Assembly: GCA_902517865.1 (NCBI GenBank)
Contig: CABYDT010000001.1
Location: 91,862-123,861, forward strand
Length of the DNA stretch: 32,000 nt
Direction of reading: 5' to 3'
Source: an uncultured Pelagibacteraceae bacterium
Lineage (GTDB): Bacteria > Pseudomonadota > Alphaproteobacteria > Pelagibacterales > Pelagibacteraceae
The notes beneath the pieces are model-generated. The model was not told where the DNA came from, searched no databases, and was given only the letters and a program-made list of their open reading frames with translations. A program made the position numbers and the translations under genes. This document shows, piece after piece, positions 3,912-29,813 of this stretch (its first letter is position 1; each line of letters opens with the position of its first letter).

Positions 3912-3940
3912 AAAATTAAATATAACATGATATCCAAATT

Positions 3941-5072: not shown

Positions 5073-5138
5073 ATGGAGTTCATACATACTTTTAATGAAC
5101 TGGTAAAGTGTTTTTTTTTAGCAAACTGTGAGATAAAT

Positions 5139-5213
5139 TGGTGGGCATGGCAAGAATTGAACTTGCTACCTCTACGATGTCAACGTAGCGTTCTACCAAT
5201 GAACTACATGCCC
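5139..5213 (-). tRNA. tRNA-Val (anticodon GAC), CCA encoded
   Basis: The reverse complement folds as GGGCATG-TA-GTTC-ATTGGTA-GAAC-G-CTACG-TTGACAT-CGTAG-AGGTA-GCAAG-TTCAATT-CTTGC-CATGCCC-A-CCA. All four stems are perfectly paired. Confidence 0.9.
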
Positions 5214-5256
5214 CTAGTATATTTTTTAATAATAAAATAAAAGGGATTATAGATAA

Positions 5257-6051: not shown

Positions 6052-6064
6052 AAGACTATCTCAT

Positions 6065-6141
<77 letters not shown>

Positions 6142-14459: not shown

Positions 14460-15145
14460 AATAGTTTTCTTTTTTTTAATAATTTATCAAGTATGTCTTT
14501 GTCCCTTTTAGTATCCATGCACTGCCAAAAGCCATGATGTTTAAAAGCAGACATTTGCTTCTTTTTTGCTAAATTTTCAAACGGCTCTCTTTCTAAATAA
14601 GTTTTGTCATTCTTTATTGTCTTTAAAAATTCTGGCTCTATTACGAAAAAACCTCCGTTAATCCATCCTTCATCCAGCTTTGACTTTTCTTTAAAATAAT
14701 TAACTCTTGATCCGGTAATTTTAATTGCCCCGAATCTAGCCGGAGGACGAACTGCTGTTAAAGTAAATAGTTTTTTATTTTTTTTATGAAATTTAAGCAA
14801 TTTATTAAGATTAACATTAGATAATCCATCTCCATAAGTCATCATAAACCTATCTTTTCCTAATATTTTTTTAAGTCTCTTAAGTCTTCCCCCGGTCATA
14901 GTATTTTTTCCAGTTTCAATGAGATTAATATTCCAATCAAAAAATTTTTTTCTAAAGTATTTTTTTATAACGTGGCCCTTGTAACCAAGTGCAATATAAA
15001 AATTTTTGTAACCATATTTAGAGTAATGTTTCATTATATGATAAATTATTGGCTTATTTCCAACTTTGATCATAGGCTTCGGTATAGTTTTTGTATATTC
15101 CGATATACGCGTCCCCATCCCCCCAGCTAAAATTACAACCTTCAT
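14456..15145 (-). CDS. rfbF: Glucose-1-phosphate cytidylyltransferase
   Basis: 229 aa. MKVVILAGGMGTRISEYT..IPKPM, GYKG.VIK.YF, TGGRLKR, TYGDG, RFGA, INGGFFV and HGFWQCMDT.RDK are collinear with Salmonella RfbF as recalled. It is shorter than RfbF through an internal deletion and a shorter tail. Confidence 0.85.
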   Translation of the reverse strand: MKVVILAGGMGTRISEYTKTIPKPMIKVGNKPIIYHIMKHYSKYGYKNFYIALGYKGHVIKKYFRKKFFDWNINLIETGKNTMTGGRLKRLKKILGKDRFMMTYGDGLSNVNLNKLLKFHKKNKKLFTLTAVRPPARFGAIKITGSRVNYFKEKSKLDEGWINGGFFVIEPEFLKTIKNDKTYLEREPFENLAKKKQMSAFKHHGFWQCMDTKRDKDILDKLLKKRKLF

Positions 15146-16254
15146 AATTTTATAAATTCCTTTTTAACTTTTTGTAAATCCTTGGGTCTAGGCAAAATAT
15201 TTTCCGATTTATTGACTTTTATACTCACCTCTAAGAATGCAGAATCTTTACTATTTAAGAAATTTTTTATTGTATATTTCAACTGTTTCTTATCAGAAAT
15301 ATAAAAATATTTTTTATAACCTAAGGATTTAGCAAATAACTTAATGTTGATATTTTCAATATTTGTTGCTTGACCTCCTACAGACTCATGAGAGTAATTA
15401 TTTACTAAAATATACTTTAGATTTTTTTTAGAATAGTTTCTAATTGATACTGCAGATCCTAAATGCATCAAGAAAGATCCATCACCGTCTACACAAATTA
15501 TTTTTTTCTTTGTTTTTAACGAGTATCCAAGACTTACTGAGGAAGTGTGACCCATACCACCAACCATATAAAAGGGTTTTATATCCGATTTAAGTTTATC
15601 TATTTGGCTATAAATTTCTCTTGATAAATAACCTGTAGATGAAATTATTTTATGACTTTTATTAACATTTTCCAGTAAAATTTTAATAAAAGAGGATCTA
15701 GTTAAAAATTTAGGGTTTATAAATTTCTGTTTGCTTTTAATATTTTTTTTATTTTTTAGCGTATTATTTTTAATTAAACATGCAACTATTTGATTCTTAT
15801 TTCTAGAGTAAGAAATAAGACTTTTTAATTTTTTTAAATCATTTTTTTTTTCTATCTCACAATTTTTTATACCACATAGCGATAGTATTTTTTTTGTAAT
15901 TGCGCCTTGCGCTAAGTGTTGTGGCTCATCATTTAATTTAGGGGCACCTCTCCATCCAATGATTAACAACATTGGAATTTTATATACTTTTTTATGAGCA
16001 ATAGATATTAGCGGATTTATTGAATTGCCCAATCCAGAATTCTGCATGTAAACAGCTGGAATTTTATTGGTTGATAAATAATATCCAATAGCTGTACCAA
16101 CTGCCGAACCTTCGTTTGTTAATATTAAATTTTTAATATTTTTTTTAGTGTCGATTAGATTAGTAAAATTTTTTAACACAGAGTCAGGTACACCTGCAAA
16201 AAAATTTATTTTATTTTTCTTTAATACTAATAACAGCTCTTCCGCAAAAATCAT
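15142..16254 (-). CDS. ppd: Phosphonopyruvate decarboxylase (TPP-dependent)
   Basis: 370 aa. The N-terminal pyrimidine-binding domain has FFAGVPDS.LK and NEG.AVG.A.GYYL. IIGWRG.P...DEPQH..QG is the Ppd/sulfopyruvate-decarboxylase signature. The C-terminal TPP motif is DGDGSFLMH...VNN. It sits next to PEP mutase genes. Confidence 0.85.
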   Translation of the reverse strand: MIFAEELLLVLKKNKINFFAGVPDSVLKNFTNLIDTKKNIKNLILTNEGSAVGTAIGYYLSTNKIPAVYMQNSGLGNSINPLISIAHKKVYKIPMLLIIGWRGAPKLNDEPQHLAQGAITKKILSLCGIKNCEIEKKNDLKKLKSLISYSRNKNQIVACLIKNNTLKNKKNIKSKQKFINPKFLTRSSFIKILLENVNKSHKIISSTGYLSREIYSQIDKLKSDIKPFYMVGGMGHTSSVSLGYSLKTKKKIICVDGDGSFLMHLGSAVSIRNYSKKNLKYILVNNYSHESVGGQATNIENINIKLFAKSLGYKKYFYISDKKQLKYTIKNFLNSKDSAFLEVSIKVNKSENILPRPKDLQKVKKEFIKL

Positions 16255-16934
16255 TTTGTAAAAATAGTTTTATGTTTATTTTTTTCCCAATAATACTTTC
16301 TATCGGTTATACGCCAGTGTCGTCCATATTGATTGTCTAAAAATTCTTTATAATAGACAGGAATTTTAATCCGCATGCCAAAATAATTAATATCCTTTAA
16401 ATATTTAAAATACTTTAATTTTGTTTTAAAACCTGCATCAACATAAAATATATTAATTTTTTCTAATTTTAATTTTAATGCTTTGAAAAATTCGCTAGTA
16501 AAACTAAAAAATTTTATTATAGAACTATATCTGCCTTTATAGTTTTTGCCTTCAGCTAATGCATAAATTAATCTACAAAAAATATTTCTCATAGCATAGT
16601 GTCTAATAAAACAATACCTGCCAGTTTTGTCTATTTCATGAAAATTTATGTCTATTTTTCGATTGTTACCCTTTTCAAAGGATAAAAGGTAATTCTTGCC
16701 AAAAGACTTGGTTTTTAATTTAAATCCTTTGCTTATAAATGCTGAAACGATCTTATCTTTATTTTTGATTTGCCAGTAACCTATATCAATATCATTATCC
16801 CAAGGAATTAAAGATTTATCTCTCACAATGCCTAATAATGTTCCATAGCATATCCAATAATTTAATTTTAAATGACTCAAGATTTGAATACATTCTCTAA
16901 AATTTGGGTCATTAATTAAAAAATTTTTTTTCAA
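16251..16934 (-). CDS. LicD-family phosphotransferase (phospho-alcohol or phosphonate transfer to glycan)
   Basis: 227 aa. YWICYGTLLGIVRDKSLIPWDNDIDIGY is the LicD nucleotidyltransferase-fold signature. An ATGA overlap couples it translationally to ppd. Confidence 0.8.
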   Translation of the reverse strand: MKKNFLINDPNFRECIQILSHLKLNYWICYGTLLGIVRDKSLIPWDNDIDIGYWQIKNKDKIVSAFISKGFKLKTKSFGKNYLLSFEKGNNRKIDINFHEIDKTGRYCFIRHYAMRNIFCRLIYALAEGKNYKGRYSSIIKFFSFTSEFFKALKLKLEKINIFYVDAGFKTKLKYFKYLKDINYFGMRIKIPVYYKEFLDNQYGRHWRITDRKYYWEKNKHKTIFTK

Positions 16935-17007
16935 AACTATATATATATTAATTTGAATTTATTTGATAATTATATAATAGACTAAACATATAATTAAAAG
17001 ATCGAAA

Positions 17008-18318
17008 ATGCCATCTCAAAAAAAAACAGTCTATGTTGCAATGAGTATAGATCTAGTACATCCAGGACACTTAAATATTATTAATAGAGCATCAAAGCTA
17101 GGTAAAGTCGTAGTTGGTTTACTGACTGATAAAGCAATTGCAAGTTTTAAAAGAGTTCCGATCATGGAATACGAAGATAGATACAAAGTTGTTTCAGCAA
17201 TTAAAAATGTTTCTAAAGTTGTAAAACAAACAACCCATGATTACAGACCTAATCTTAGAAAGATAAAACCGGAGTTTGTAGTTCATGGTGATGATTGGAA
17301 ACAAGGAGTTCAAAAAAAAATTAGAAACGATGTAATTCGTGAATTAAAAAAATGGAATGGTAAATTAATTGAATTTCCATATACAAAAGGAGTATCAACA
17401 ACAAAATTAATTGAAACAGAGAGAAAAATTGGTACGACGCCTGACATAAGAAGGAAAAGACTATTAAGATGTTTAAACTCAAGATCTTTAACAAAATTTA
17501 TTGATATTCATAGTGGATTAAGTGGATTGATAGTTGAAAAAACAAGAATTAATACCGAGGGTAAAATTGAAGAGTTTGATGGTATGTGGGCTAGCTCGTT
17601 AACAAATACTGCTGTCAAAGGTAAGCCTGATATTGAGGCAGTTGATTTAACCGAGAGGTTGCAGCTAATTCACGAGGTATTAGAAGTTACAACAAAACCA
17701 ATAGTATTTGATGCAGACACTGGAGGAAAAATCGAACATTTTATTTTTACAGTAAGAACTCTTGAAAGATTAGGGGTATCGGGTGTTATAATTGAAGATA
17801 AAACGGGTCTAAAAAAAAATTCATTGCTAGGTAAAAAGGTTTTTCAAAAACAAGAAAGTATTAAAAATTTTTCAAAGAAAATTGCAGCCGGTACGAAGGC
17901 TAAAACAACAAATGAATTTTTTGTCATTGCAAGAATAGAAAGTTTAATACTTAAAAAAAGTTTAAAAGACGCTATAACGAGAGCCAAAGCCTATATTAAT
18001 GCAGGCGCTAGTGCAATTATGATTCATAGTATAAATAAAAGTCCAAAAGAAATTTTTAAGTTTGCTAAAATTTATAATAATTTAAAAAATCGAAAACCCT
18101 TAATTGTGGTGCCAACAACCTATAATCATGTAAAGGAAAAAGAATTCGAAAAAAATGGTATAAATATGATTATCTACGCTAATCATTTATTTAGAAGTAC
18201 ATACCCAAATATGAAGACTACAGCTGAGAGTATTTTAAGGAATAAAAGATCTAAAGAGTCAGAAAAAAATTTGATGTCTATTAACGAGATTTTAAATTTA
18301 ATACCTGGAACTAAATAA
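17008..18318 (+). CDS. pepM: Bifunctional cytidylyltransferase / phosphoenolpyruvate phosphomutase (Fom1-like fusion), copy 1
   Basis: 436 aa. The N-terminal HxGH cytidylyltransferase domain has VYVAMSIDLVHPGHLNIINRA and VVHGDDW. The C-terminal ICL/PEPM domain has the PEP-mutase-diagnostic EDKxxxxxNS motif (IIEDKTGLKKNSL), plus FDADTGG and ARIES. Confidence 0.9.
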   Translation: MPSQKKTVYVAMSIDLVHPGHLNIINRASKLGKVVVGLLTDKAIASFKRVPIMEYEDRYKVVSAIKNVSKVVKQTTHDYRPNLRKIKPEFVVHGDDWKQGVQKKIRNDVIRELKKWNGKLIEFPYTKGVSTTKLIETERKIGTTPDIRRKRLLRCLNSRSLTKFIDIHSGLSGLIVEKTRINTEGKIEEFDGMWASSLTNTAVKGKPDIEAVDLTERLQLIHEVLEVTTKPIVFDADTGGKIEHFIFTVRTLERLGVSGVIIEDKTGLKKNSLLGKKVFQKQESIKNFSKKIAAGTKAKTTNEFFVIARIESLILKKSLKDAITRAKAYINAGASAIMIHSINKSPKEIFKFAKIYNNLKNRKPLIVVPTTYNHVKEKEFEKNGINMIIYANHLFRSTYPNMKTTAESILRNKRSKESEKNLMSINEILNLIPGTK

Positions 18319-18320
18319 TT

Positions 18321-19055
18321 CTACAAGGCTCCGCCTTTGTTTGAAACACTATCATTTTTATCATTAAAATATTCTAAATAAATATTAGAGTTTTTGCTTT
18401 CTGCATAAGTGTAATAAAGAATTCTTCTATCATTATCGGATTTATTTTTGTCAGATTTATGTGGACACAGATGGCTAAAAAATAATAAATCACCCGGTTT
18501 CAAGTTAACTTTTTCAAAATTAAGTTTTTCAGCATATTCCTTTTTTAGAAATGGAGTACCATTATTTTCTGTATTTTTTATGAGTTCATCAAATTTTAGA
18601 AAATCAGCTTTAGCAACTTCAAGTGTACCATTTTCATCATTGCAGGAGTCAAGTGCAACCAAAACATTGAGAAAAAAATTTGAGTATTTATGCCAGCCTC
18701 TATGTCTTGAACCATCTTTTTTTTCAAAATAAAAAATACCATCATAATGAGCTAAAAATCCCTCTCCGCCTTTTGGCTTTGCATTAAACTTATCTTTAAA
18801 AATAACGAATTCTTTTTTGAATAAACCCTTAATGTACCTTAAAATTTGATTATTTAGGTCATTTAAATATTCCCCTTTATTATAAAGTTTTTCTATCCTT
18901 CTTAGCTTATTGTTTTTGTCGTAATATTTTTCAACATTATTTGCGTTTTGAATTTCAATGTTTAGTTCATCAATAAAATCTTTTGAAAAAAAGTTTTCTA
19001 CTTTAAAATAACCTTTATCCTTAAAAATATTAATTAGATTTGATTTTTCTTTCAT
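18321..19055 (-). CDS. Fe(II)/2-oxoglutarate dioxygenase, phytanoyl-CoA dioxygenase (PhyH) family
   Basis: It has an N-terminal F.DKGYFKVENFF, an HxD motif (LAHYDG), a distal His (SHLCPHKS) and Arg (DRRILYY). The ORF track starts at 19109. The Met at 19055 (MKEKSNL...) reduces the overlap with the upstream gene to 26 nt and is the likelier start. Confidence 0.7.
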   Translation of the reverse strand: MKEKSNLINIFKDKGYFKVENFFSKDFIDELNIEIQNANNVEKYYDKNNKLRRIEKLYNKGEYLNDLNNQILRYIKGLFKKEFVIFKDKFNAKPKGGEGFLAHYDGIFYFEKKDGSRHRGWHKYSNFFLNVLVALDSCNDENGTLEVAKADFLKFDELIKNTENNGTPFLKKEYAEKLNFEKVNLKPGDLLFFSHLCPHKSDKNKSDNDRRILYYTYAESKNSNIYLEYFNDKNDSVSNKGGAL

Positions 19056-19908
19056 AAATATAATTATATGTTTGGGAAAACTCCTCGGTAACAGGTATGT
19101 TCTTTTCAAGTAACTTTTTAGTTAGTTTAAAACCTGAATTAACCATAATACTATTTACTCTTTTCCTTTGTTCTTTAAATTTTTCATTCACCTCAACCAA
19201 TATACTTTTTATTTTTTTATTCTTTAAAGTTTTTTTGCCACCTTCTAAAATTAAGTGCTCAATACCATCAACATCAATCTTGATATAATCAGGTATTTTC
19301 ATTATTTCTTTTTCTACTAAAAAATCAATAGTTGTGCCGAGAATTTTATAACTATTCCCGATATTAAATTTTTTTCCTTCAAAATTATATTTTTCTCCGT
19401 ATGTGTTTAATGACAAGCCTTCTTCAAATTTAAGTTCTTTCATCTCCAAAAATTTATTTTTTTTATCTGTTAATGGAAGAGTATTAATATTTATTTTGTT
19501 TACCATGTTATTTAAAAATATGTTCCTGCTTAAAACCCTTAAATTACTAGAAGATGGTTCAAATGCAAAAATTTGAATTTTATTTTTATGTACAATCGAA
19601 GCGTAAATTGAATACACACCGATGTTAGCTCCTATATCCCAAAAAATAATATTTTTTTTTGTCTTAAAATTATTTATCCATTCTATAGTATCAGGTTCTT
19701 TATCAATAAAAGTTCTTACTCTCCATTCAGTAAGTTGATTTGGCGTAAAAAATAAAACTTTTTTTCCTTTAATATAGATAGTTTTTATAGCATCTAAGTT
19801 GATAAAGTAATTAATCCAAGTAATAAAATTTCTATTGGTAAAAAAATAAAATAGTTTATTAATCGTTTTTAAAATAATGTAGATTAGATAAGAAAACGTT
19901 TTTAACAT
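19030..19908 (-). CDS. FkbM-family SAM-dependent methyltransferase
   Basis: 292 aa. FWDIGANIGVYSIYAS, FAFEPSSSN and IKIDVDGIEHLILEGG are the Methyltransf_21/FkbM signatures. Confidence 0.8.
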   Translation of the reverse strand: MLKTFSYLIYIILKTINKLFYFFTNRNFITWINYFINLDAIKTIYIKGKKVLFFTPNQLTEWRVRTFIDKEPDTIEWINNFKTKKNIIFWDIGANIGVYSIYASIVHKNKIQIFAFEPSSSNLRVLSRNIFLNNMVNKININTLPLTDKKNKFLEMKELKFEEGLSLNTYGEKYNFEGKKFNIGNSYKILGTTIDFLVEKEIMKIPDYIKIDVDGIEHLILEGGKKTLKNKKIKSILVEVNEKFKEQRKRVNSIMVNSGFKLTKKLLEKNIPVTEEFSQTYNYIYERKIKSN

Positions 19909-19927
19909 ATAATAAGTTTTTTATATT

Positions 19928-21007
19928 ATGAAAGATGCAATTAAAACAATAAAATTAAAAACAATTTTAAAACAAGACAATTTTTTTATCATTTCAGGTA
20001 AAAACTCTTTTCATAAATCGAAATTTAAAGAAAATTTTAAACTTAACGGTAAAAAAAATATCTTTTTAAAAAAAAATAATTATCCTGATGTTAATGAGTT
20101 AAAAAAAATACTATTTAAAGTAAATACTCATAAACCAAAATTTATTGTAGCAATAGGTGGTGGCAGTGTCTTGGATTATGCAAAACTTGTGTCTTGTTTA
20201 TATAAAGATAAAAATATTAATTACTCTAAATTAGTCAAATATAAATTCAAAAAAAAATTAAAAGTCATAGCAATACCAACTACTGCCGGATCAGGGGCAG
20301 AGATAACACCTAACTGCGTTCTATATAGAAATAAAAAGAAACTAAGTATCCACAACAAATATTTGAAACCAGATTTCTTTTATTTAAATTATAAATTATT
20401 AAAAGGGTTATCTAAAATTTATAGATCTTCTGCAGCTTACGATGCGCTTTCTCAAGCAATTGAGTCATTACTTGCAAAAAAATCTAGCCCCAAAAGTAGG
20501 CATCATTCAAAAAAATCTATCCAGCTTATTTTGAAAAATATTAGAAAATATCTGAGAACAGGTGATAAGAATAGTACAACCAAAATGCTCAATGCAGCAA
20601 ATCTCTCGGGAAAGGCAATCGCAATTACAGAAACAACTGCTCCGCATGCTCTTTCTTATGGTTTTACAGTATTTTATAACGTTCCCCATGGGCACGCAGT
20701 TGTTTTGACTTTGCCAATTATATTAAATTTTAATTTTGAAAAAATAATTTCAAATAAAAATAAGTATAAAAAAAGTTTACGTAAATATAACATGTTATTT
20801 AAAATTTTTAATGTTAAAAATATTTCCCAGCTTAATCGTAAATTAAATTCAATATTTCGAATTTATAGATATAATTTTAAACAAAGAAAAAAATTTTCTA
20901 TACCAAAGATACTTTTTGGAATAAATGAGAGAAGATTAAAAAATAATCCAGTAGATATTAATAAAGAAAATTTGAAGAAAATTTTAGAAAAAGTCAGAGC
21001 TAAATAG
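19928..21007 (+). CDS. Iron-containing (group III) alcohol dehydrogenase; candidate phosphonoacetaldehyde reductase (FomC/PhpC-like)
   Basis: 359 aa with IAIGGGSVLDYAKLVS, IAIPTTAGSGAEITP and the metal ligands in APHALSYGF..VPHGHAV. The function is inferred from context between pepM/ppd and the radical SAM gene. Confidence 0.7.
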   Translation: MKDAIKTIKLKTILKQDNFFIISGKNSFHKSKFKENFKLNGKKNIFLKKNNYPDVNELKKILFKVNTHKPKFIVAIGGGSVLDYAKLVSCLYKDKNINYSKLVKYKFKKKLKVIAIPTTAGSGAEITPNCVLYRNKKKLSIHNKYLKPDFFYLNYKLLKGLSKIYRSSAAYDALSQAIESLLAKKSSPKSRHHSKKSIQLILKNIRKYLRTGDKNSTTKMLNAANLSGKAIAITETTAPHALSYGFTVFYNVPHGHAVVLTLPIILNFNFEKIISNKNKYKKSLRKYNMLFKIFNVKNISQLNRKLNSIFRIYRYNFKQRKKFSIPKILFGINERRLKNNPVDINKENLKKILEKVRAK

Positions 21008-21077
21008 ATTTTAGTTCAAATACCCTTTATGTTTTTTTCTATTATACCTACTAAATTAATGTTATAAGTTTATTCTA

Positions 21078-21584
21078 ATGAAAATAGATAATGTTTTATT
21101 AAAAAATTATTTAAAAATTACTTTTGGTGTACTATTAGTTATTATTGTTTCAAGATTTATTCCGCACCCGCCGAATTTTACAGCTTTAATTGCGCTAAGC
21201 TTCTATGTTCCAGCAATACTAGGCAAAAAATATATACCAACCTTATTGCTGAGTTTTGTTATTACAGATCTTATAATTGGTTTTCACCAAATAATATTAT
21301 TTACATGGGGTAGCGTAATTTTAATTGGTCTTGTTTCGTCATATTTTAGTTTTTCTTTAAAAAGTAGAATTTCAGGGGCTTTTCTATCAGCATGCTTATT
21401 TTTTTTGATAACAAATTTCGGTGTATGGTTGACAGGAGTATACGGATTAACAATTGATGGTTTGCTTTTGTGCTATACAATGGCAATACCATTTTTTGGA
21501 TATACTTTAGTATCTACATTGTTGTACTCAGGAATAATTGAGATAGTAAATTCGCAATATAAAAAAATAAAAAAAATAATCTAA
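21078..21584 (+). CDS. Small polytopic membrane protein, DUF6580-like putative transporter (ECF S-component-like)
   Basis: 168 aa with 5-6 hydrophobic helices. The N-terminal SRFIPHPPNFTALIALSFY resembles the R.IPHP.NF.P motif that I associate with the DUF6580 family of putative transport proteins. This is recalled from memory and not verified. Confidence 0.45.
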   Translation: MKIDNVLLKNYLKITFGVLLVIIVSRFIPHPPNFTALIALSFYVPAILGKKYIPTLLLSFVITDLIIGFHQIILFTWGSVILIGLVSSYFSFSLKSRISGAFLSACLFFLITNFGVWLTGVYGLTIDGLLLCYTMAIPFFGYTLVSTLLYSGIIEIVNSQYKKIKKII

Positions 21585-21591
21585 TAAATAA

Positions 21592-23112
21592 TTAAGTCTG
21601 CCTTTGAAAATGGTGTGACTCTTCAGAGTTTTGGCCGTATTTATATTTGAACCTATCTATGTCTCTTTCTTTAAGTAACAAGTTAGCTTTCATGTTTGTC
21701 TCGTTAACAAACTTTTCGAATTCCTCAGGTCCATTGAAACCGTCAACTTTAATTAGTGATGATCTTAACATCATATCGTCCATAGTTCTTCCATTCCACC
21801 AAAGTTTTTCTTTCATAACTTGTCTATAAATTGGAGTACCTGGTAAAGGATTTAATATGGCGAAACCGAAGCTATCTGCTCCACTGTTCATTGCAAATTT
21901 TATTGTATTTTGAATTTCTTCATAAGTCTCGCCTGGATAACCTAAAATCCAAAATGTATGTACTAACATTCCCGCTTTTTTAGCTCTTTCAATTGCAGGG
22001 TACACAGTATTTAAATCTAGTCTTTTATTTATAAGATGATCTAAGACTCTTTGATTTCCACTCTCACATGCTAAAGTTATTTGATAGCAACCACCGTCTG
22101 CCATTGCCTGATACATTTCTTGTTGGGTTCTTAAGTGATAATTAACTTTTGTTCCATTAGGTGTACACCAAGGAAGACCAACTTTTTCTAATTCTTTACA
22201 TAGAGCATAAAGATTTTTTTTATTAACAGTCAAAGTATCGTCTAAAAATTGTATTTCGCCGATATTAAATTGTTCAACATCTTCTTTAATTTCGGTCATT
22301 ATATTTTCTGTAGTCCTCCATCTAACACTACTGCCCCACATTTGAGGTGTTGTACAAAAAGTACATTTTTCTGGGCAACCCCTTGAGCACATAACACTTA
22401 GAACTCTATTCGATCTTGCTTTCGCTGATTGGAATGCTCCTATTTTAAAATATGACTCCATATTAACAAGATGTCTTGCTGGTCGAGGTAATAAATTTAC
22501 GTCATGCTTTTCACTTTTTTGATTTATTAAATATTTTTTGTGCCCGATTTTTTTAATAAGACCTGGCACGTTTGAATAATTATCAGTTTTATTAATTATG
22601 CAATCCACTAGTTGTGTAATTGGTTTTTCACCTTCACCTGCCATTGCAAAATCAATGCAAGGATTCTCCAGGTCCTCAATATAATCTGGTAAGTTAGATC
22701 TTGGATCATTAACTGCAAATTGATAGTCTATTGCTGCGTTAGAAATGTGATTACCTCCCAGTATAACTTTAATATTGCTATTAACTTCCTTTGCAAGCTT
22801 TGCGATATTGTGTGCTGAATTTAAAAAATTGGAGAATAGGACTGATACTGCGAGGACATCTGGTGAAAAGTCTGATATTACTTTTTTGATCTGTTCATCA
22901 GATTGACCAATCATCACTTTCTTCTTTTTTTTGTCGACTATGATTCTGTGGTCCCAACCTTCTAAAGCAGTATCATGTATTTTGACAATATGACCGTGCT
23001 GTTCAAGCATGCCGGCAATTAACATAACTCCCAAGGAAGGTTGAATTCTATTAACACCATCGTCCATACCTTTGAGGTTTGGCGTCATTAAAAGTACTCT
23101 GGCTTTTTTCAT
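21592..23112 (-). CDS. Cobalamin-binding-domain radical SAM enzyme (class B; putative methyltransferase, Fom3/PhpK-like by context)
   Basis: 506 aa. The N-terminal B12-binding-like Rossmann domain begins RVLLMTPNL...PSLGVMLIAGMLEQHGHIVKIHD. The radical SAM cluster motif is CPEKCTFC (CxxxCxxC). Confidence 0.8.
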   Translation of the reverse strand: MKKARVLLMTPNLKGMDDGVNRIQPSLGVMLIAGMLEQHGHIVKIHDTALEGWDHRIIVDKKKKKVMIGQSDEQIKKVISDFSPDVLAVSVLFSNFLNSAHNIAKLAKEVNSNIKVILGGNHISNAAIDYQFAVNDPRSNLPDYIEDLENPCIDFAMAGEGEKPITQLVDCIINKTDNYSNVPGLIKKIGHKKYLINQKSEKHDVNLLPRPARHLVNMESYFKIGAFQSAKARSNRVLSVMCSRGCPEKCTFCTTPQMWGSSVRWRTTENIMTEIKEDVEQFNIGEIQFLDDTLTVNKKNLYALCKELEKVGLPWCTPNGTKVNYHLRTQQEMYQAMADGGCYQITLACESGNQRVLDHLINKRLDLNTVYPAIERAKKAGMLVHTFWILGYPGETYEEIQNTIKFAMNSGADSFGFAILNPLPGTPIYRQVMKEKLWWNGRTMDDMMLRSSLIKVDGFNGPEEFEKFVNETNMKANLLLKERDIDRFKYKYGQNSEESHHFQRQT

Positions 23113-23168
23113 ATTATGGTTACACTATATACACTAATTTATTTTTAAAAAATCAATTATTTGTTAAT

Positions 23169-23843
23169 TTACTTCTCAATATACATAGGCTTTTTAAGGT
23201 TTTTAAAAGATTTAGCTTTCTTTTTAACCTTTTTAAGAAATGTATTAATAACTCTAGTTTCGCCTTTGTAAAAAATACCGCTTGTACCTACCCCTTGATA
23301 ATTATCTAAAAGAATTAAGCCCCCTTTAATTATCCTTGGATAAAAATGATTTAAAACACATTCAGTTGATTCGACAAAATCTATATCGACGTTTAGTAAA
23401 ATAATTTTTTCTTTTGGTCTTTTTTTTAGAAATTCAGGCACTGTTTTGAGCACGTTTCCCTTAATTAATTGAAAATTTTTAATATTTTTTTTCTTAAATA
23501 ATGTTTCGAGTTTTTTTTTTGAAAAAGAATTACCAGCAGTTTTCATCCAATGTTTTCTTTGTTTTTTCTCATTTTTATACTTGGTATCTGGGTACGGCTC
23601 TTCAAAAACATCAAAGCCAATGAGTTTTGAATTCTCCTTATTAAATAATTTACGCATCATTGCAAATCTTGAAAAAGATGTGCCCTTAAATACACCCGCT
23701 TCTACTATTGATCCACTTAAGTGCGATACTTTTTTAAAAGCTTCATAATGTACCAAAAATTTCGATAATCTATCTTTTGTCATTAAAAGATTAAAATCAG
23801 TCTCTGAGTTGTACATTTTTTGGATATTAAGATAATTAACCAT
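23169..23843 (-). CDS. TylF/macrocin-O-methyltransferase-family SAM-dependent methyltransferase
   Basis: 224 aa. GSIVEAGVFKGTSFSRFA and LLNVDIDFVESTECVLNHFYPRIIKGGLILLDNY fit the TylF-like class I methyltransferase pattern, including metal-binding Asp residues. Confidence 0.7.
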   Translation of the reverse strand: MVNYLNIQKMYNSETDFNLLMTKDRLSKFLVHYEAFKKVSHLSGSIVEAGVFKGTSFSRFAMMRKLFNKENSKLIGFDVFEEPYPDTKYKNEKKQRKHWMKTAGNSFSKKKLETLFKKKNIKNFQLIKGNVLKTVPEFLKKRPKEKIILLNVDIDFVESTECVLNHFYPRIIKGGLILLDNYQGVGTSGIFYKGETRVINTFLKKVKKKAKSFKNLKKPMYIEK

Positions 23844-24598
23844 TAGAAAATTCGTTTAGCTTTAAGATAATCTTGCTTGTTATCAATTTCAATCCATTTA
23901 TTACTTTTAGTATAGTAATAATCTAAATTATTTTTACTCATAAATATATTTAAGGGATTTTCCCAGTTTTTTTTTAGATTTTTCTTCTTACTTAAAAATT
24001 TGTTAAGGATACAAATTAATTTTTTTCTATGACCGTTATCTAATCGTATAATACCGACAGCTTCACCTAAAAATTTACTACTTTTCAAAACATCCTGTTT
24101 AGCAAATTTTTTATCTATCATATATTTAATTTTTTTGCTTTTATTAATAAATACTTTGGCACACTCTTGATCTGAAATATCTCCTTTTCCAACCAATGCC
24201 AGATTAAATTTTTTTGACTTTAAAAAATGTTTTAGTATTTTAAAATCTATCATAATATCACCATCTAAAAATATGCATCTTGAATTAATTTTTTTTAAGC
24301 CTAAAAGCAGTGAGTAAGAATTTCCTTTAGAAATATAATTTTTATTTTTTGTGATTTTTATATTTATGTTATTTTTATAAGATTTTGTGATTTTTTTAAA
24401 TAAAAAATCTTTATATCCCAATACAAGAGTAAAATTTTTTGCACCAACTTTCATAAATTTATCAATATTGCTTTCCAAAATTGACTTATTTGAAATTTGT
24501 AAAAGACTTTTTGGTTTTTTTGTATAGTTAGATATTCTCGATCCCTTCCCGGCAGCGAGAATTATTATATGCGTTGACTTGCAGAGTCTTTTATCCAT
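23843..24598 (-). CDS. LicC/PntC-like nucleotidyltransferase (candidate phosphonate or phospho-alcohol cytidylyltransferase)
   Basis: 251 aa. IIILAAGKGSRISNYTKKPKSLLQISNKSILE is the NTP_transferase G-rich loop. The size and layout resemble LicC. Confidence 0.7.
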   Translation of the reverse strand: MDKRLCKSTHIIILAAGKGSRISNYTKKPKSLLQISNKSILESNIDKFMKVGAKNFTLVLGYKDFLFKKITKSYKNNINIKITKNKNYISKGNSYSLLLGLKKINSRCIFLDGDIMIDFKILKHFLKSKKFNLALVGKGDISDQECAKVFINKSKKIKYMIDKKFAKQDVLKSSKFLGEAVGIIRLDNGHRKKLICILNKFLSKKKNLKKNWENPLNIFMSKNNLDYYYTKSNKWIEIDNKQDYLKAKRIF

Positions 24599-25494
24599 GC
24601 TCTAATCATTGTTCTTTTTAATGGAGCTAATGTTTCTTTATTTTTAAAAATCTCTTCACTATTATAAAAATCAGAGAAAGATGTTCTTCCATGCAATACT
24701 TGATTATCAATTGTTAGAAGTATATCTCCTGGACTTAAATTAAATCTAATTTGATTTTCAGGGGCCTCCAATAAAGAGTCCAAAACATCTAGTGAGTATA
24801 ATTGTAATGGGCTTAAAGGTTTTTTAACTTTTTCATGAGCAGACACCATATAGGGTCTTAAATATCTAAACGTTGGTTCTTTTTTTTTATTAAATTCAAT
24901 AATTGGGGATTTATAAAAACTTTCTGATATACCTCTCTTTTCCCAATAAAAATTTTTCCTCAATATACTAAGTGCAAGTTTAAATTTTTTCTTAAGAATT
25001 TTGTATATCTCTTTACCATTAACCAAGATAGTTTCTCCTCCTATTTCGGCTCTAGAAACGCAACTTAAAATTAAATAATCCCATTTGATTTTAAGATTAA
25101 CATTATCTGTATGTATACTACCGCCTTCTCTGGTTTGATGATATCTGCCACCTGAGTTAATTGATAAATTTCTATCTCGATCAAAGACATAAACCAATTT
25201 ATCCCCCTTTTCATTTTGGACAATTTTTTTTCCAAGAATTAACGATACAGCTTTTGTAATATCTATAATTGTATCCGGCGCTAAATATTTATTTTTATAG
25301 TTAAATTGCAAGACAACACCTAACTTGCCATGTTTGAGTTTGTTTTTGCATGATTCGACATAATTCTTAAAACTCTTATTAGAGAGAATTGTATTTACGT
25401 TATCTTTATCTTTATTCTTATCTAGGCTTTTAAGTAATTTCAAAATATTAGTATTTGGACGTGAAAAATCTATATAGCGAATATTTTTTTTCAT
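24565..25494 (-). CDS. Fe(II)/2-oxoglutarate dioxygenase, TauD/TfdA (gamma-butyrobetaine hydroxylase-like) family
   Basis: 309 aa. It has an HxD in GGSIHTDNV and a distal His-Arg in DNQVLHGRTSF. The overall length and spacing are TauD-like. Confidence 0.7.
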   Translation of the reverse strand: MKKNIRYIDFSRPNTNILKLLKSLDKNKDKDNVNTILSNKSFKNYVESCKNKLKHGKLGVVLQFNYKNKYLAPDTIIDITKAVSLILGKKIVQNEKGDKLVYVFDRDRNLSINSGGRYHQTREGGSIHTDNVNLKIKWDYLILSCVSRAEIGGETILVNGKEIYKILKKKFKLALSILRKNFYWEKRGISESFYKSPIIEFNKKKEPTFRYLRPYMVSAHEKVKKPLSPLQLYSLDVLDSLLEAPENQIRFNLSPGDILLTIDNQVLHGRTSFSDFYNSEEIFKNKETLAPLKRTMIRAWIKDSASQRI

Positions 25495-25531
25495 ACGCGC
25501 TTTTTAGTATAAGTTAATAAATTAATCAATT

Positions 25532-26347
25532 TCATAATTTGTCCCTTACAGAATTAACAAAACCTTTAAATAAACAAATATATAAACCACCTAAAAAAAT
25601 TAAAGAGGTTTTAAAGCAAATTAGAAAGAATAATACATCACTAACATAAATTTTATTGTGAATAATTTCAAATACTAAAACTAATAATATGATATCAACC
25701 CAAGAAGATCTATCATTTAATATATTATCAAATAAAAATTTAAATATTCTTAAAATTGGAGAAAATTTCATTATTTTACTTCTATTTTTTTTTCGGTTTA
25801 TTTTTTTTCCACTTTTATAATGTTCATACATAGTGATTAAGTATGTAAAATTTTTTAAATCAAAAAATTTAAAAGATAAGTAAATTAAAATTGAGTATAA
25901 ATAGACAATATCTGACGTATGATTAAATAAGTAAATAGATAAAGCTATTACAAATAAATTGTAATTTACTAACCCCGTCCATATATCCAAAACATGACCA
26001 AGATTAGATTGTTTTTTATTTACTGAAGCTAGTAGACCGTCAGTCCAGTCTAATAAACCGATAGAAAAAAAAATTATAATACCGATAAATTTTAATTTAT
26101 CTTCGCCAAAACTTAAGAAAATCGTACCAAAAAAAACAAGGATAGAATTTGTAATTGAAACTGAATTAGGAGTAATAGGGGTTTTTTGAAATAAAAAAAC
26201 CAATATAGAGCTTAATTCAATAAATAACCTAGACTTTAAATACGAATAAGGAGATCTAAAAAAACTTTGTAGATCAATATCGTAATCTTTCGAGTGTCTA
26301 CTTAAAGATCTTTTATAATTAATAGCTCTAATTTTTGCAAAATTCAT
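25532..26347 (-). CDS. CDP-alcohol phosphatidyltransferase-family membrane protein (variant motif)
   Basis: 271 aa and polytopic. DWTDGLLASVNKKQSNLGHVLDIWTG fits DG(x2)A(R/S)(x8)G(x3)D(x3), with the final Asp replaced by Gly. Confidence 0.6.
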   Translation of the reverse strand: MNFAKIRAINYKRSLSRHSKDYDIDLQSFFRSPYSYLKSRLFIELSSILVFLFQKTPITPNSVSITNSILVFFGTIFLSFGEDKLKFIGIIIFFSIGLLDWTDGLLASVNKKQSNLGHVLDIWTGLVNYNLFVIALSIYLFNHTSDIVYLYSILIYLSFKFFDLKNFTYLITMYEHYKSGKKINRKKNRSKIMKFSPILRIFKFLFDNILNDRSSWVDIILLVLVFEIIHNKIYVSDVLFFLICFKTSLIFLGGLYICLFKGFVNSVRDKL

Positions 26348-26349
26348 AC

Positions 26350-27651
26350 TTAAGGAATTAAATTGATTATTTCTTTTATTGGTGTCATATCTTTTTTAGC
26401 GTTCTTGGCTCTTGAATTTTTTAAAATACTTTTTGCCACCTTATTCATCGCTGCGTAAGAAGATCTCAATAATTGATTAGCATATATTACAATATCAAAA
26501 CCATTTTGTTTTAATATTTTTTCCGTGACATGATCATAAGTAGAAGGTACACAAACAAGTGGTATAGAAGAATTAAACTTTTTAAATCTTTTAGCAAATT
26601 CAAATACTTTTTTGGGATTTTTTTCTTTACTATGTATCATTATTCCATCCACGTTAGCTTTTACATATTTTTTTGCCCTTCTAATCGCATCATTTATACC
26701 TTTATTAAGTATAAAGCTTTCAATTCTTGCTATGACCATAAAATCATTAGTTATTTGATTAGTTTTTATAAATTTAATTTTGTTTGCAAAACGTACAGGA
26801 TCTTCTTGTTTTTGATTAGAAGTATCCTCAAAAAGCGAATTTCTTTTCACGCCTGTTTTGTCTTCCATAATGACTGCGGATATACCAAGTTTTTCAATTG
26901 AATTAATTTTCATTTTTAGATGTTCGAGCTTACCACCGGTATCAATATCCATAATAAGAGGCTTGCTGGTCACATCAAAAATTTTATCAATATTATTTAA
27001 TCTTAAAGAAAGATCTAAAGACTCATTATCCGGTCTTCCAAAAAGAGTAGAGTCAGTCAATGAACTGGACCAAAATCCATCAAAGTATTTTTCTTTTTTA
27101 TTTTGAATTATAGATATCTTTTCAACTAACAAAGCACTTAACGGTGAGTGTGCTTCAATAAAAGTTAGGAATTTTTTTAAACTTAGTAACCTTTTAAGTG
27201 ATGACCTTCTTCTATCTGGAGTAACAGAGAATCTCAAATCTTTACCTATTTCATTATGAATATTAAAGGAATGAGCATTCTTTGCATGTGGGACTTCAAC
27301 GAGTTTTCCTCCAATGGATTTTAAGCATTTAATTACTTTCTTTCTTAAATCTTTTTCAATTCCAAATTTCCAATCATCTCCATGTACGACTATATCTGGT
27401 CTTATCTTTTTTATATTTATTGTGTCATCCCACTCTTTTTGAGGAATAACTTTTTTTACACCCTTAATATTTTTTATGATAGTTTTTCTCTGTTCAAATG
27501 TTAGCAATGGCATTCTTTTTTTGGCTAAGATTGCCTCTTCGGTCAATAAACCTATTGTTAAGTTACCTAAAGAACTAGCTTTATTAATTACGTTTATATG
27601 ACCATGGTGAAGATTGTCCGCCGAAAGAGACAAATATACATTTTTTTTCAT
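26350..27651 (-). CDS. pepM: Bifunctional cytidylyltransferase / phosphoenolpyruvate phosphomutase (Fom1-like fusion), copy 2
   Basis: 433 aa. The N-terminal domain has VYLSLSADNLHHGHINVINKA and VVHGDDW. The C-terminal PEP mutase domain has IMEDKTGVKRNSL (EDKxxxxxNS), MDIDTGG and ARIES. It is collinear with copy 1 but clearly diverged. Confidence 0.9.
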   Translation of the reverse strand: MKKNVYLSLSADNLHHGHINVINKASSLGNLTIGLLTEEAILAKKRMPLLTFEQRKTIIKNIKGVKKVIPQKEWDDTINIKKIRPDIVVHGDDWKFGIEKDLRKKVIKCLKSIGGKLVEVPHAKNAHSFNIHNEIGKDLRFSVTPDRRRSSLKRLLSLKKFLTFIEAHSPLSALLVEKISIIQNKKEKYFDGFWSSSLTDSTLFGRPDNESLDLSLRLNNIDKIFDVTSKPLIMDIDTGGKLEHLKMKINSIEKLGISAVIMEDKTGVKRNSLFEDTSNQKQEDPVRFANKIKFIKTNQITNDFMVIARIESFILNKGINDAIRRAKKYVKANVDGIMIHSKEKNPKKVFEFAKRFKKFNSSIPLVCVPSTYDHVTEKILKQNGFDIVIYANQLLRSSYAAMNKVAKSILKNSRAKNAKKDMTPIKEIINLIP

Positions 27652-28631
27652 ATTAAATTTTGTAAAATTTCTCCTTTCGATTTATTTCCTAAATACACTT
27701 CTCCAAGATGACTTACTACACTTCCATCACTTTTAATTCTAGGAGTGTACAATAAAGTTTTTTTGTTTTTTTGTTTTAATTTTTTTTTTATATAAGTGCA
27801 TATTGTAGGTTGGTGCTTTATATCGTATTTTAAAAATCTTTTATATTTCAAAATAAATTTTTTCTTATTAATTTGAACTGACTTTAAGAAAAAATTATAT
27901 TTTTTTAAAACTAAATCCATAGATTGAAGGATGTGATATGGACCGGTCATCTTTTTATTAAGGTGACTGTAGTAGTTTAAATAAAATGATTTTACTCTAT
28001 TTTTCGGATTTGACTTAGAGGCAACAAAAGATGCTCCGGTTAGTCCAAATAAACCTTTACAACTACTGAAAGATACAACATCAGCAAGTCCATGATTTTT
28101 CTCTAAACCTATAGAGGCTGTGGCATCTAAAGCTAATTTTGCATTTAACTTTGTTGATAATCTTTTTAGATCAAATATTGGTAGCTTAAGTCCTTTGCTT
28201 GTTTCAACATAACAACACCATATCCAATCATATTTTTTTTTAATGTTTTTAACATTTTTCCAGCTAACGCTATCAATTTTTGTAATATATTTATAGTTTT
28301 TCATTGTATTAGTTGCTATGTCAAAAAGTCTATTTGAATAATAGCCAGTAGATATAATTAAAACTCTTCCTGATATAAAGTTTGAACAAAGGATTTCGCA
28401 AGCCAAGCTTCCTGATCCTTGGAAAGAAATAATTTTTTTTTGCTGCGAGATTTTTTTTAAATTCTTTTCAACTCTTTTTGATAAACTGGCATAGTGTTTG
28501 TCACCTCTTCCGAAACAAGGTTGTAAATTACTAATATTTTCACTTAAAAGTGCAGCTGGACCAGGAGTAAAAATATTCAATTTTTTATTTTTCTTTATAA
28601 TGAATTTTGAAAACAAATTTTTATTATTCAT
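27648..28631 (-). CDS. Class V PLP aminotransferase; candidate 2-aminoethylphosphonate:pyruvate transaminase (PhnW-like, biosynthetic direction)
   Basis: 327 aa. FTPGPAALLSEN, FQGSGSLACE, VETSKGL, LDATASIG and SSCKGLFGLTGASFV (PLP Lys) follow the class V pattern. An ATGA overlap links it to pepM copy 2. Confidence 0.6.
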   Translation of the reverse strand: MNNKNLFSKFIIKKNKKLNIFTPGPAALLSENISNLQPCFGRGDKHYASLSKRVEKNLKKISQQKKIISFQGSGSLACEILCSNFISGRVLIISTGYYSNRLFDIATNTMKNYKYITKIDSVSWKNVKNIKKKYDWIWCCYVETSKGLKLPIFDLKRLSTKLNAKLALDATASIGLEKNHGLADVVSFSSCKGLFGLTGASFVASKSNPKNRVKSFYLNYYSHLNKKMTGPYHILQSMDLVLKKYNFFLKSVQINKKKFILKYKRFLKYDIKHQPTICTYIKKKLKQKNKKTLLYTPRIKSDGSVVSHLGEVYLGNKSKGEILQNLI

Positions 28632-28637
28632 AATTAA

Positions 28638-29813
28638 TTACGTATCAACTTTTTTATAACTATACCCAACATTGGCTCCACTTGGTAAATGAATCAAACT
28701 TGCAGAAGCTTTTGATGTATTTTTTAATATCATTTTTGGACATTTTTTATAAGGTTTAAGTGTGTGAATTGGTTGCCATGGAGGTCTAACGCCTACACCT
28801 TTTTTATTTAAATATTTTATTATTTTTTTTTGAGATCGTTTATTTTTGTTATTTAAAACTATTGTTTGTAGCCAATAATTACTAAACGTATTAATGGGTT
28901 CTTTCATAATTTGATAATCGTTTGTATCACTTAAAACTTTAACATACTTTTTATATAACCATCTCTTCTTTTTTATAAAGTTTTTTAGCTTTTGAATTTG
29001 GGCCAAACCAAGAGAAGCATTAAGACTTGGCATTTTAAAATTATAGCCTATTTCATTATGAAATATTCTATAATTTTTCACAATTTTTGATGTTGAACAA
29101 ATATGGTTTATTTTAGAGTATAATTTTTTTGAATTTGTAATTATTGCACCACCTCCTCCTGTAGTTATAATTTTGTTTCCATTAAAACTAATTACTCCCA
29201 TTGATCCAAAATTACCTACGTGTCTACCTTGATATTTGCTACCAAATGACTCTGCACAATCTTCAACGATTTTAAGTTGATATTTTTTTGCTAGAGATAA
29301 ACATTGCCTCATGTTACTCGGATGGCCAAACAAGTGAACAGGAATAATTGCTTTTATTACTTTATTTGTATTTTTATTATAGCATTTACCATTCTTAAAA
29401 TTAACTATAGAGGATAAGTAATGATCCAACCTATCATAATCTATATCCATCAGATCATTGTTTAAATCGACAAAATGCGGAGTTGCATTACAATACGCTA
29501 TAGGATTTACTGAACCTATAAATGTAAGCGATGGAACAAGGACTTCATCTCCTTCTTTTACTCCTAGAGTTTTCAAACAAATAAAAATTCCAGTTGTTGC
29601 GTTAATAGTTGCAACTGAATACTTTGACCTAGTAGTTAATTTAATTTTTTTCTCAAATTTTTTTGTATTTTTCCCTTTGGTAGATACATAAGTAGATTTT
29701 AAGCATTTTATAATTTCGAGTTTTTCATGTTTTGAAAAGCAAGGCTCGTGTAGTTCTTCTTTCTCATTTCTAAAAAACATTTTTAATTTACTGTAAATTT
29801 TTTTTTCTATCAT
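28638..29813 (-). CDS. DegT/DnrJ/EryC1/StrS-family PLP-dependent sugar aminotransferase
   Basis: 391 aa. LVPSLTFIGSVNPI, PVHLFGHP, IVEDCAESFGSKY and ISFNGNKIITTGGGGAI are family motifs, and the PLP lysine is retained. It overlaps rfbG by 4 nt. Confidence 0.8.
   Translation of the reverse strand: MIEKKIYSKLKMFFRNEKEELHEPCFSKHEKLEIIKCLKSTYVSTKGKNTKKFEKKIKLTTRSKYSVATINATTGIFICLKTLGVKEGDEVLVPSLTFIGSVNPIAYCNATPHFVDLNNDLMDIDYDRLDHYLSSIVNFKNGKCYNKNTNKVIKAIIPVHLFGHPSNMRQCLSLAKKYQLKIVEDCAESFGSKYQGRHVGNFGSMGVISFNGNKIITTGGGGAIITNSKKLYSKINHICSTSKIVKNYRIFHNEIGYNFKMPSLNASLGLAQIQKLKNFIKKKRWLYKKYVKVLSDTNDYQIMKEPINTFSNYWLQTIVLNNKNKRSQKKIIKYLNKKGVGVRPPWQPIHTLKPYKKCPKMILKNTSKASASLIHLPSGANVGYSYKKVDT

Follow-up and report, generated by a model that had tools for sequence, protein, structure and literature searches.

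In the 32,000-nucleotide stretch of Pelagibacteraceae DNA analyzed here (contig CABYDT010000001.1; hereafter, the window), a small membrane protein of the DUF6580 family is encoded next to a radical S-adenosylmethionine (SAM) enzyme with a B12-binding domain. We think it likely that the membrane protein (168 amino acids, six predicted transmembrane helices; positions 21078 to 21584, plus strand) is a stand-alone importer of vitamin B12, with a B12 link to the enzyme (506 amino acids; 21592 to 23112, minus strand); the exact reaction of the latter is rated lower. DUF6580 would then provide the inner-membrane step of vitamin B12 (corrinoid) uptake, working without a dedicated energy-coupling factor (ECF) module, functionally similar to BtuM and unrelated to it in sequence; in most SAR11 relatives, its gene is the last in a cassette formed by a riboswitch, a BtuB-like receptor, and DUF6580 itself. 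The class B radical SAM enzyme encoded next door would receive the imported cobalamin and, using methylcobalamin and SAM, might turn CMP-2-hydroxyethylphosphonate (CMP-2-HEP) into CMP-2-hydroxypropylphosphonate in a Fom3-like reaction, after which a LicD-type transferase would attach the product to a surface glycan. We read DUF6580 as a family of B12 inner-membrane transporters because of its linkage to riboswitches and receptors, the B12 enzymes in its neighborhood, and a structure model resembling the substrate-binding (S) components of ECF transporters.

Both open reading frames (ORFs) had been described in an earlier note made from the sequence alone, and that description proved correct in every detail: the coordinates, the convergent orientation with a gap of only 7 nucleotides between the stop codons (21585 to 21591), the RFIPHPPNFT stretch (residues 26 to 35 of the membrane protein), and the CxxxCxxC motif of the enzyme (CPEKCTFC, with C246, C250, and C253). 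The two domain assignments that it put forward were borne out by Pfam, with scores above the curated cut-offs for both DUF6580 (PF20221, 102.9 bits versus a cut-off of 27, E-value of 2.8e-29, residues 14 to 154 on profile positions 9 to 148 of 162) and the B12-binding domain (PF02310, residues 24 to 126, 53.2 bits versus 32.1, E-value of 3.4e-14), and the radical SAM core of the enzyme was found as well (PF04055, 76 bits, E-value of 4.9e-21). No NCBIfam family matched the DUF6580 protein. The attribution to a SAR11-like genome also holds, on the basis of G+C content (22 to 36% in the window and 22 to 27% across most of the region from 8 to 21 kb), the genomic setting, and the Pelagibacterales relatives: a 5S rRNA gene (4957 to 5071) and two tRNA genes (all within 4957 to 6138; Rfam) adjoin a low-G+C island of approximately 25 kb, containing glycosyltransferases, a Wzy-type polymerase, epimerases, and aminotransferases. 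Such a low-G+C glycosylation island beside the 5S rRNA gene, with relatives in Pelagibacterales, is what identifies hypervariable region 2 (HVR2) of SAR11, which we take to be the island beside that gene and which the layout of the window matches. Overall, the interpretation of the gene pair given in the earlier note is largely supported.

The evidence for a role in B12 uptake came from the relatives of the window. A scan covering one genome per prokaryotic species yielded 224 candidate stretches, 210 of which encode a DUF6580 relative; 80 loci were kept, 78 of them Pelagibacter-type and including three complete genomes, and about 170 related loci were compared overall. NZ_CP159811, NZ_CP159813, and CP136340 are complete SAR11 genomes with the cassette described below. 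The contigs of the closest nonidentical homologues (L002 and L004) show synteny with the window, at 75 to 78% nucleotide identity over approximately 14 kb, and carry an AdoCbl-II riboswitch (RF01689; 84.4 bits in L002, versus a gathering score of 36.5) and a gene for a 625-amino-acid TonB-dependent receptor directly before DUF6580. The same order of riboswitch, receptor, and DUF6580 recurs in a different, NeuB-type island (L005/L006), with a B12-binding/radical SAM gene (fragmented on this contig) approximately 4 kb upstream of the riboswitch. Across the 80 SAR11 loci, a search with a covariance model built from three copies found the riboswitch in 67, and in 65 it precedes DUF6580 in the same orientation; at most of the loci without it, the contig sequence ends early upstream. 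Its structure was well supported, with 97.5% of cells paired, against 33 to 43% in slid controls, and with compensatory changes in 14 of 22 pairs. The receptor gene was present in 75 of the 80 loci. For receptors of both subfamilies, the best full-length matches were to the BtuB models TIGR01779 and NF007926, at scores (127 to 172 bits) below the equivalog cut-offs (600 and 836 bits); on the basis of this best match and the riboswitch control, we refer to them as BtuB-like. The relatives' combination of riboswitch, BtuB-like receptor, and inner-membrane component is a textbook example of an AdoCbl-II btuB operon, but whereas the founding paper gave the taxon of this riboswitch class only as "Marine" (PMC2864571), the 67 copies reported here are in Pelagibacterales, with none in the window.

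Enzymes with a B12-binding domain are the third recurrent element. When the ORFs of 88 loci were clustered, DUF6580 was found in all 88, the receptor in 82, and a B12-domain radical SAM protein in 66, and no other cluster came close. A member of the radical SAM cluster lies within 10 kb of DUF6580 at 60 of the 80 SAR11 loci (33 of the 42 full-length loci), and at 43 it is the immediate neighbor of the cassette; PF02310 was matched by 9 of 10 sampled neighboring radical SAM proteins from diverse subfamilies, 7 of them above the curated cut-off. The co-occurrence of both gene types, which the earlier note had proposed as a check, is seen not only in these counts but also in the presence of the same convergent pair in other metagenomes and in another island.

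The arrangement of the cassette is not uniform. In Pelagibacter sp. Uisw_137 (L037; NZ_CP159811, 7759 to 10513) and at L048, the riboswitch and BtuB-like receptor are divergent from DUF6580, which lies on the opposite strand without a riboswitch of its own, a second route, besides that seen in the window, out of B12 control. Two contigs (L048 and L056) are labeled as Flavobacteriales/Flavobacteriaceae metagenome-assembled genomes, yet they carry a SAR11-type cassette, with DUF6580 60 to 61% identical to that of the window, and they were probably misbinned. In many SAR11 genomes (L026, L064, L070, L074, L075, L078, L080, and L084), the cassette is found at the extreme edge of the island; beside it, about 0.2 to 5 kb from DUF6580, is a region of approximately 4 kb whose ORFs are all short and recurring and which we interpret as the rRNA operon. 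The island border may thus be a preferred anchoring site of the cassette, while in the window the location is mid-island.

DUF6580 is a large family, with at least 3020 clusters at 50% identity (E-value of ≤1e-3), and its link to B12 extends beyond SAR11. Members from outside this clade were aligned, and of 80 metagenome loci that were fetched (soils, sediments, and other habitats), 40 were scanned with Rfam. A cobalamin riboswitch (RF00174 or RF01689) was found within 4 kb at 15 of the 40, mostly upstream and on the same strand; from the few cobalamin riboswitches present per genome, we roughly estimate, rather than compute, a chance expectation of well under 2%. One was also found at all 4 further loci for which precomputed gene annotation was available. 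Combined, this amounts to 19 of 44 loci, with the riboswitch located upstream on the same strand at 16. In Ignavibacterium, the riboswitch is followed by a TonB-dependent receptor gene, further genes, and then DUF6580. In candidate-phyla bacteria, an operon conserved on four non-SAR11 contigs (L179, L180, L181, and L142, one of them from Candidatus Levybacteria) comprises NrdR, a class II ribonucleotide reductase (TSCPD domain), an AdoCbl-II riboswitch, a DUF4430 protein, DUF6580, and a PduO-type adenosyltransferase. DUF4430 is the C-terminal domain of vertebrate transcobalamins (PMC4350170), and the operon from NrdR to PduO looks like a self-contained module that captures, imports, and activates B12 for the reductase. 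The suggestion made in the earlier note that the small membrane protein could be a vitamin uptake component gained strong support from the position of DUF6580, directly behind cobalamin riboswitches and BtuB-like receptors both in SAR11 and in unrelated phyla. At a further locus with a cobalamin riboswitch upstream (L111, 2636 to 5202), the DUF6580 gene sits between paralogous genes of the PF01902 family (Diphthami_syn_2, ATP-pyrophosphatase-like), for which we know of no B12 link.

The AlphaFold (AF2) model of the DUF6580 protein (pLDDT of 84.8, pTM of 0.75) shows six long helices, in line with the five to six transmembrane segments predicted earlier. Its best Foldseek matches were S-components of ECF transporters, with FolT (5d0y_A, TM-scores of 0.64/0.69) followed by 7nnt_C, 4huq_S, and CbiM (5x3x_m). 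Ten residues are conserved family-wide (R26, P29, H30, N33, D64, F108, N113, W117, P138, and F139), all of them present in the window copy, and H70 and C132, the latter in helix 6, are mostly conserved. By the positive-inside rule, H30 and N33 (loop 1) and D64 and H70 (around loop 3) would face the periplasm, and it is on the periplasmic face that S-components bind their substrate. Although DUF6580 shares with S-components such as FolT, CbrT, and CbiM its presumed role in vitamin uptake, as well as the structural resemblance, it differs from them in that neither the window nor the annotated loci showed an EcfT or EcfA gene.

The known system that DUF6580 most resembles in its proposed function is BtuM of Thiobacillus denitrificans (6FFV; PMC6072759). 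Like DUF6580, BtuM is a protein of approximately 20 kDa from Gram-negative organisms, with six helices, genomically linked to BtuB, lacking an ECF module, proposed to import B12 alone, and containing conserved polar residues in its predicted periplasmic loops L1 and L3; its fold is that of an S-component, which the DUF6580 model resembles (PMC6072759 for BtuM). However, the invariant cobalt-ligating Cys80 in L3 of BtuM has no counterpart in DUF6580, which has His70 and no cysteine in L3 and does not qualify as a BtuM on this ground, and the 131 homologues reported for BtuM (PMC6072759) contrast with the 3020 clusters of DUF6580 at 50% identity.

Several observations weigh against DUF6580 being a B12 importer. 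Matches to S-components were weak, with Foldseek E-values of 1.2 to 6.5, probabilities of 0.5 to 0.84, and TM-scores of 0.5 to 0.69; of the two resemblances on which the earlier note had made its proposal depend, that to DUF6580 stood, whereas the ECF S-components, while being the best structural matches, were found only at E-values above 1. BtuM (6FFV) was absent from the 49 Foldseek matches, and no PDB sequence, BtuM and CbrT included, was matched at an E-value of ≤10 by phmmer or by a 30-sequence profile, so that homology to BtuM, CbrT, or the solved S-components cannot be claimed from sequence. Approximately 25 of the 40 non-SAR11 loci scanned with Rfam lack a cobalamin riboswitch, and at one locus (L168; Ga0209711_10001765), a SAM-II riboswitch (RF01726, 55.8 bits, 3892 to 3950) is located directly upstream of the DUF6580 homologue (4007 to 4558). 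Either this member transports another substrate, or B12 uptake is tied there to methionine/SAM status; the family may therefore not be strictly monospecific. Finally, the window itself has no riboswitch, neither with Rfam nor with our own model with filters off (best hit of 12 bits, E-value of 0.27), and no gene for a TonB-dependent receptor, leaving the passage of B12 across the outer membrane unexplained in this lineage. Neither riboswitch nor receptor was found in approximately 10 kb past the end of the window either, as seen on a second contig with identical genes; the receptor may be located elsewhere in the genome.

What the window contains, then, is a rare variant: the island is syntenic with those of its relatives, but their riboswitch and outer-membrane receptor are missing. 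Between the upstream gene, encoding an iron alcohol dehydrogenase (Fe-ADH), and DUF6580, the window has a spacer of 70 nucleotides (21008 to 21077); in L002, this position is occupied by 2.2 kb of inserted sequence that includes the AdoCbl-II riboswitch and the BtuB-like receptor gene. The synteny breakpoints determined with blastn (20994 and 21105 in the window, corresponding to 5816 and 8007 in L002) delimit 110 nucleotides (20995 to 21104) versus 2190 nucleotides. An assembly artifact does not account for this, since two other metagenomes (L088 and L089) show the same 70-nucleotide spacer and gene order. Of those SAR11 genome loci that extend far enough upstream, only about four lack the riboswitch (L012, L045, L080, and L083), and only L012 and L080 of these also lack the receptor. 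A deletion scar was not apparent, as the 110-nucleotide junction did not convincingly resemble the L002 insert at either of its edges, and the variant either lost the riboswitch and receptor or never gained them. Promoter-like sites between 19800 and 23400 were at background level (25 found versus 19.8 expected), and a scan for terminators in the same region found none. Here, DUF6580 is probably cotranscribed with the upstream Fe-ADH gene, on the same strand, and would be outside B12 regulation.

Both genes of the pair are nevertheless under purifying selection in this receptor-less lineage. Compared to L088, the enzyme shows zero amino acid changes (dN of 0 at a dS of 0.22), and DUF6580 has a dN/dS ratio of 0.27; on these values, we rejected the possibility that the pair is a decaying remnant. 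The convergent pair is also retained in a third island context (L091 to L095). As a separate observation, the radical SAM protein is 100% identical at the amino acid level in the window (21592 to 23112), L088 (6515 to 8035), and L089 (5192 to 6712), at a synonymous divergence of 0.22, which is unusually strict conservation for a gene in a flexible island.

Two other roles for DUF6580 have to be weighed against B12 import. The protein could be related to B12 without being a transporter, acting as a membrane corrinoid handler, such as a decyanase, the partner of a reductase, or a chaperone passing cobalamin from the periplasm or another transporter on to the enzymes. Linkage to riboswitches, BtuB, and adenosyltransferases indeed demonstrates only membership of a B12 regulon, the conserved His30, Asp64, His70, and Cys132 could be cobalt ligands or catalytic residues, and BtuM, too, decyanates B12 (PMC6072759). 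We nevertheless hold such a role to be improbable: no other candidate for an inner-membrane B12 transporter (BtuCDF or an ECF module) was seen in any cassette, the six-helix, S-component-like fold predicted for the protein is that of a transporter, and the candidate-phyla operon encoding a binder (DUF4430), DUF6580, and an adenosyltransferase requires a membrane crossing that only DUF6580 can provide. More doubtful again, in our view, is the transport of a different substrate, be it cobalt, a lower-ligand precursor (alpha-ribazole), a phosphonate or glycan precursor, or methionine/SAM. ECF S-component-like proteins do have many specificities, and the SAM-II riboswitch at L168, the many non-SAR11 loci without a cobalamin riboswitch, and the position of the window gene inside a phosphonate cluster would all fit. 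In SAR11, however, the gene travels with a riboswitch and a BtuB-like receptor through unlike islands, few of which contain PepM, and its partners are B12-using enzymes rather than phosphonate enzymes as such. Genes for corrin synthesis or salvage were seen at none of the loci, which were not screened systematically for them, and on that limited basis the uptake of cobalt or ribazole looks purposeless. Uptake of a phosphonate precursor, which the earlier note had also considered, found no support, and DUF6580 was rejected as a phosphonate transporter because the cassette occurs mainly in PepM-less islands.

Turning to the enzyme, its AlphaFold model (pLDDT of 87.2, pTM of 0.88) has the architecture of a class B radical SAM enzyme, with full-length Foldseek matches to TsrM, MgmA, AprD4, CysS, TokK, and OxsB (E-values of 1e-17 to 1e-21); for the cobalamin-bound structures among these (TsrM, TokK, CysS, and OxsB), the match includes the cobalamin domain. 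Together with PF02310, PF04055, and the CxxxCxxC motif, whose C246, C250, and C253 are invariant among 28 homologues, this agrees with the cobalamin-type radical SAM architecture that had been recognized from the sequence, and we infer that the enzyme uses cobalamin. A point to the contrary is that a PF02310 domain is no proof of cobalamin use, as AprD4 is an equally good structural match; to our knowledge, AprD4 is reported not to use cobalamin. The enzyme might accordingly be cobalamin independent, its Rossmann domain a relic and its adjacency to DUF6580 a leftover of the ancestral cassette, in keeping with AprD4 being its best PDB sequence match (E-value of 1e-21) and with the absence of a riboswitch and receptor from the window. 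We find this scarcely credible, given that the convergent pair has been kept in at least three island contexts, that selection has preserved both genes in a lineage without the receptor, that the B12 cassette is bordered at 43 of 80 loci by a varied set of B12-domain radical SAM genes, and that the structural match spans the cobalamin domain of TsrM, TokK, CysS, and OxsB.

The reaction is less clear than the cofactor. In the fosfomycin pathway of Streptomyces, Fom1, Fom2, and FomC make CMP-2-HEP, the substrate of Fom3, which methylates it. The genes for a Fom3-type substrate are colocated in the window, which contains a Fom1-like fusion protein (17008 to 18318), a phosphonopyruvate decarboxylase (15142 to 16254), and Fe-ADH (19928 to 21007), besides the radical SAM enzyme with its B12 domain. 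It differs from the fosfomycin pathway in also having LicD, CDP-alcohol transferases, and glycan genes, and the likeness is one of gene content. Because the CMP-2-HEP gene set and the LicD/CDP-alcohol transferases neighbor the enzyme, we tentatively favor a Fom3-like C-methylation that would give a 2-hydroxypropylphosphonate decoration, an assignment from gene context to which we give somewhat less than an even chance. No match to an epoxidase (HppE) or a CMP-hydroxypropylphosphonate hydrolase was found among the scanned ORFs of the window, although no search was aimed at either; with LicD/CDP-alcohol transferases and glycan genes in place of an epoxidase, the product would be a surface decoration rather than an antibiotic. 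A 74%-identical homologue of the enzyme carries the automatic JGI name "phosphonoacetaldehyde methylase."

C-methylation is ranked above its main competitor, in which the enzyme is a P-methyltransferase similar to PhpK or Sden_1168 that makes a phosphinate (C-P-C). Indeed, it is a point against a Fom3-like role that the closest curated model is that of a P-methyltransferase, not of Fom3: among NCBIfam families, NF038361 (Sden_1168 P-methyltransferase) scored best, at 245.6 bits over residues 4 to 496, i.e., nearly the full length, with PhpK (TIGR04479, 125 bits) the next best among phosphonate families, and all these proteins belong to phosphonate metabolism. Both scores, however, are far below the respective cut-offs (575 and 600 bits), so that the enzyme is a member of neither family; genes for an H-phosphinate substrate, or other context of an H-phosphinate pathway, were not found in the window, and the genes making CMP-2-HEP are all present. 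We therefore regard P-methylation as unlikely, if still worth keeping in mind.

The phosphonate genes of the island fall into two branches. The first, to which the radical SAM enzyme belongs, includes the cytidylyltransferase-phosphoenolpyruvate (PEP) mutase fusion (17008 to 18318, plus strand; PF01467 and PF13714), which is Fom1-like and scored 379 bits against TIGR02320 (PEP_mutase; cut-off of 319.55), and the Fom2/AepY-like phosphonopyruvate decarboxylase (15142 to 16254, minus strand; TIGR03297, 362.7 bits versus a cut-off of 312.5). Also part of it are Fe-ADH (19928 to 21007, plus strand; PF00465 and PF25137), a FomC/PhpC-like putative phosphonoacetaldehyde reductase with a best NCBIfam match, below the cut-off, to TIGR03405 (Phn_Fe-ADH) and located directly upstream of DUF6580, and a LicD-family transferase (16251 to 16934, minus strand; PF04991, E-value of 2.9e-12), a candidate for transferring the CMP-phosphonate to a glycan. 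Beyond the radical SAM gene, and in the same operon direction, follow genes for a TylF-like methyltransferase (23169 to 23843, minus strand) and a MobA/NTP-transferase-like protein (23843 to 24598, minus strand), both syntenic in L002 and L004 (Pfam matches PF05711, PF12804, and PF00483 for 23169 to 24598). The second branch (24565 to 28631, minus strand) comprises a TauD-like dioxygenase, a CDP-alcohol phosphatidyltransferase, a second cytidylyltransferase-PEP mutase fusion (26350 to 27651, minus strand; TIGR02320, 354 bits), and a PhnW-like aminotransferase. Since the window (14456 to 29813) thus holds two separate fusions with different downstream enzymes, one cell may make two nucleotide-activated phosphonates for its surface. 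Elsewhere in the island, a PhyH-like ORF with a TTG start (18321 to 19109, minus strand) and an FkbM-methyltransferase ORF (19030 to 19908, minus strand) overlap by 80 nucleotides; because its homologues in L002 and L088 are called at 244 amino acids, the true start of the PhyH-like protein probably lies downstream of the listed TTG.

Phosphonate clusters of SAR11 were already known, from work that makes no mention of cobalamin and names Fom3 once, in a figure legend (PMC9381506). We found no literature combining SAR11, phosphonate, pepM, and the hypervariable region, and the pairing of Fom3 with Pelagibacter turned up one survey, without discussion of a SAR11 Fom3. In the openly searchable literature, subscription-only literature being outside the search, no paper mentions DUF6580, and the names under which the family appears in databases are "DUF6580 family putative transport protein," "hypothetical," and "uncharacterized membrane protein." Within that scope, three findings appear new: the assignment of a function to DUF6580, the systematic association, in the glycan island of SAR11, between the cassette and radical SAM genes with a B12 domain, and the placement of many AdoCbl-II riboswitches in SAR11. 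The premise of the earlier note that SAR11 has little or no B12 metabolism agrees with older literature, in which the clade was described as neither synthesizing nor requiring B12 (PMC3476827) and its type strains as lacking TonB-dependent transporters (PMC3400609), but it no longer stands unqualified, as a later study calls SAR11 B12 auxotrophic and mentions a SAR11 btuB, while stating that its regulation by B12 is unknown (PMC9296465). The riboswitches reported here answer, at the sequence level, whether SAR11 btuB is regulated by B12.

On balance, we lean toward a broader picture in which DUF6580 is a large family of stand-alone corrinoid importers, ranging from SAR11 to candidate phyla, and in which diverse B12-dependent radical SAM enzymes of the hypervariable surface-glycan island are accompanied in SAR11 by a mobile cassette (riboswitch, BtuB-like receptor, and DUF6580). 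Within SAR11, the most abundant bacterial clade of the ocean, a substantial fraction would then consume B12, for surface tailoring rather than for central metabolism, and much of the "Marine" AdoCbl-II class would be of SAR11 origin. If this is true, DUF6580 joins BtuCDF, ECF-CbrT, BtuM, and BacA as a route for B12 across the cytoplasmic membrane, and a large orphan family gains a testable function. The picture of marine B12 demand would change as well: 210 stretches in species-representative genomes encode the putative transporter, nearly all of the 80 examined being SAR11, and many SAR11 cells probably consume B12. The availability of this vitamin would affect the decoration of the cell surface with phosphonates and glycans and hence recognition by phages and grazers, as well as the marine phosphonate and methane cycles.

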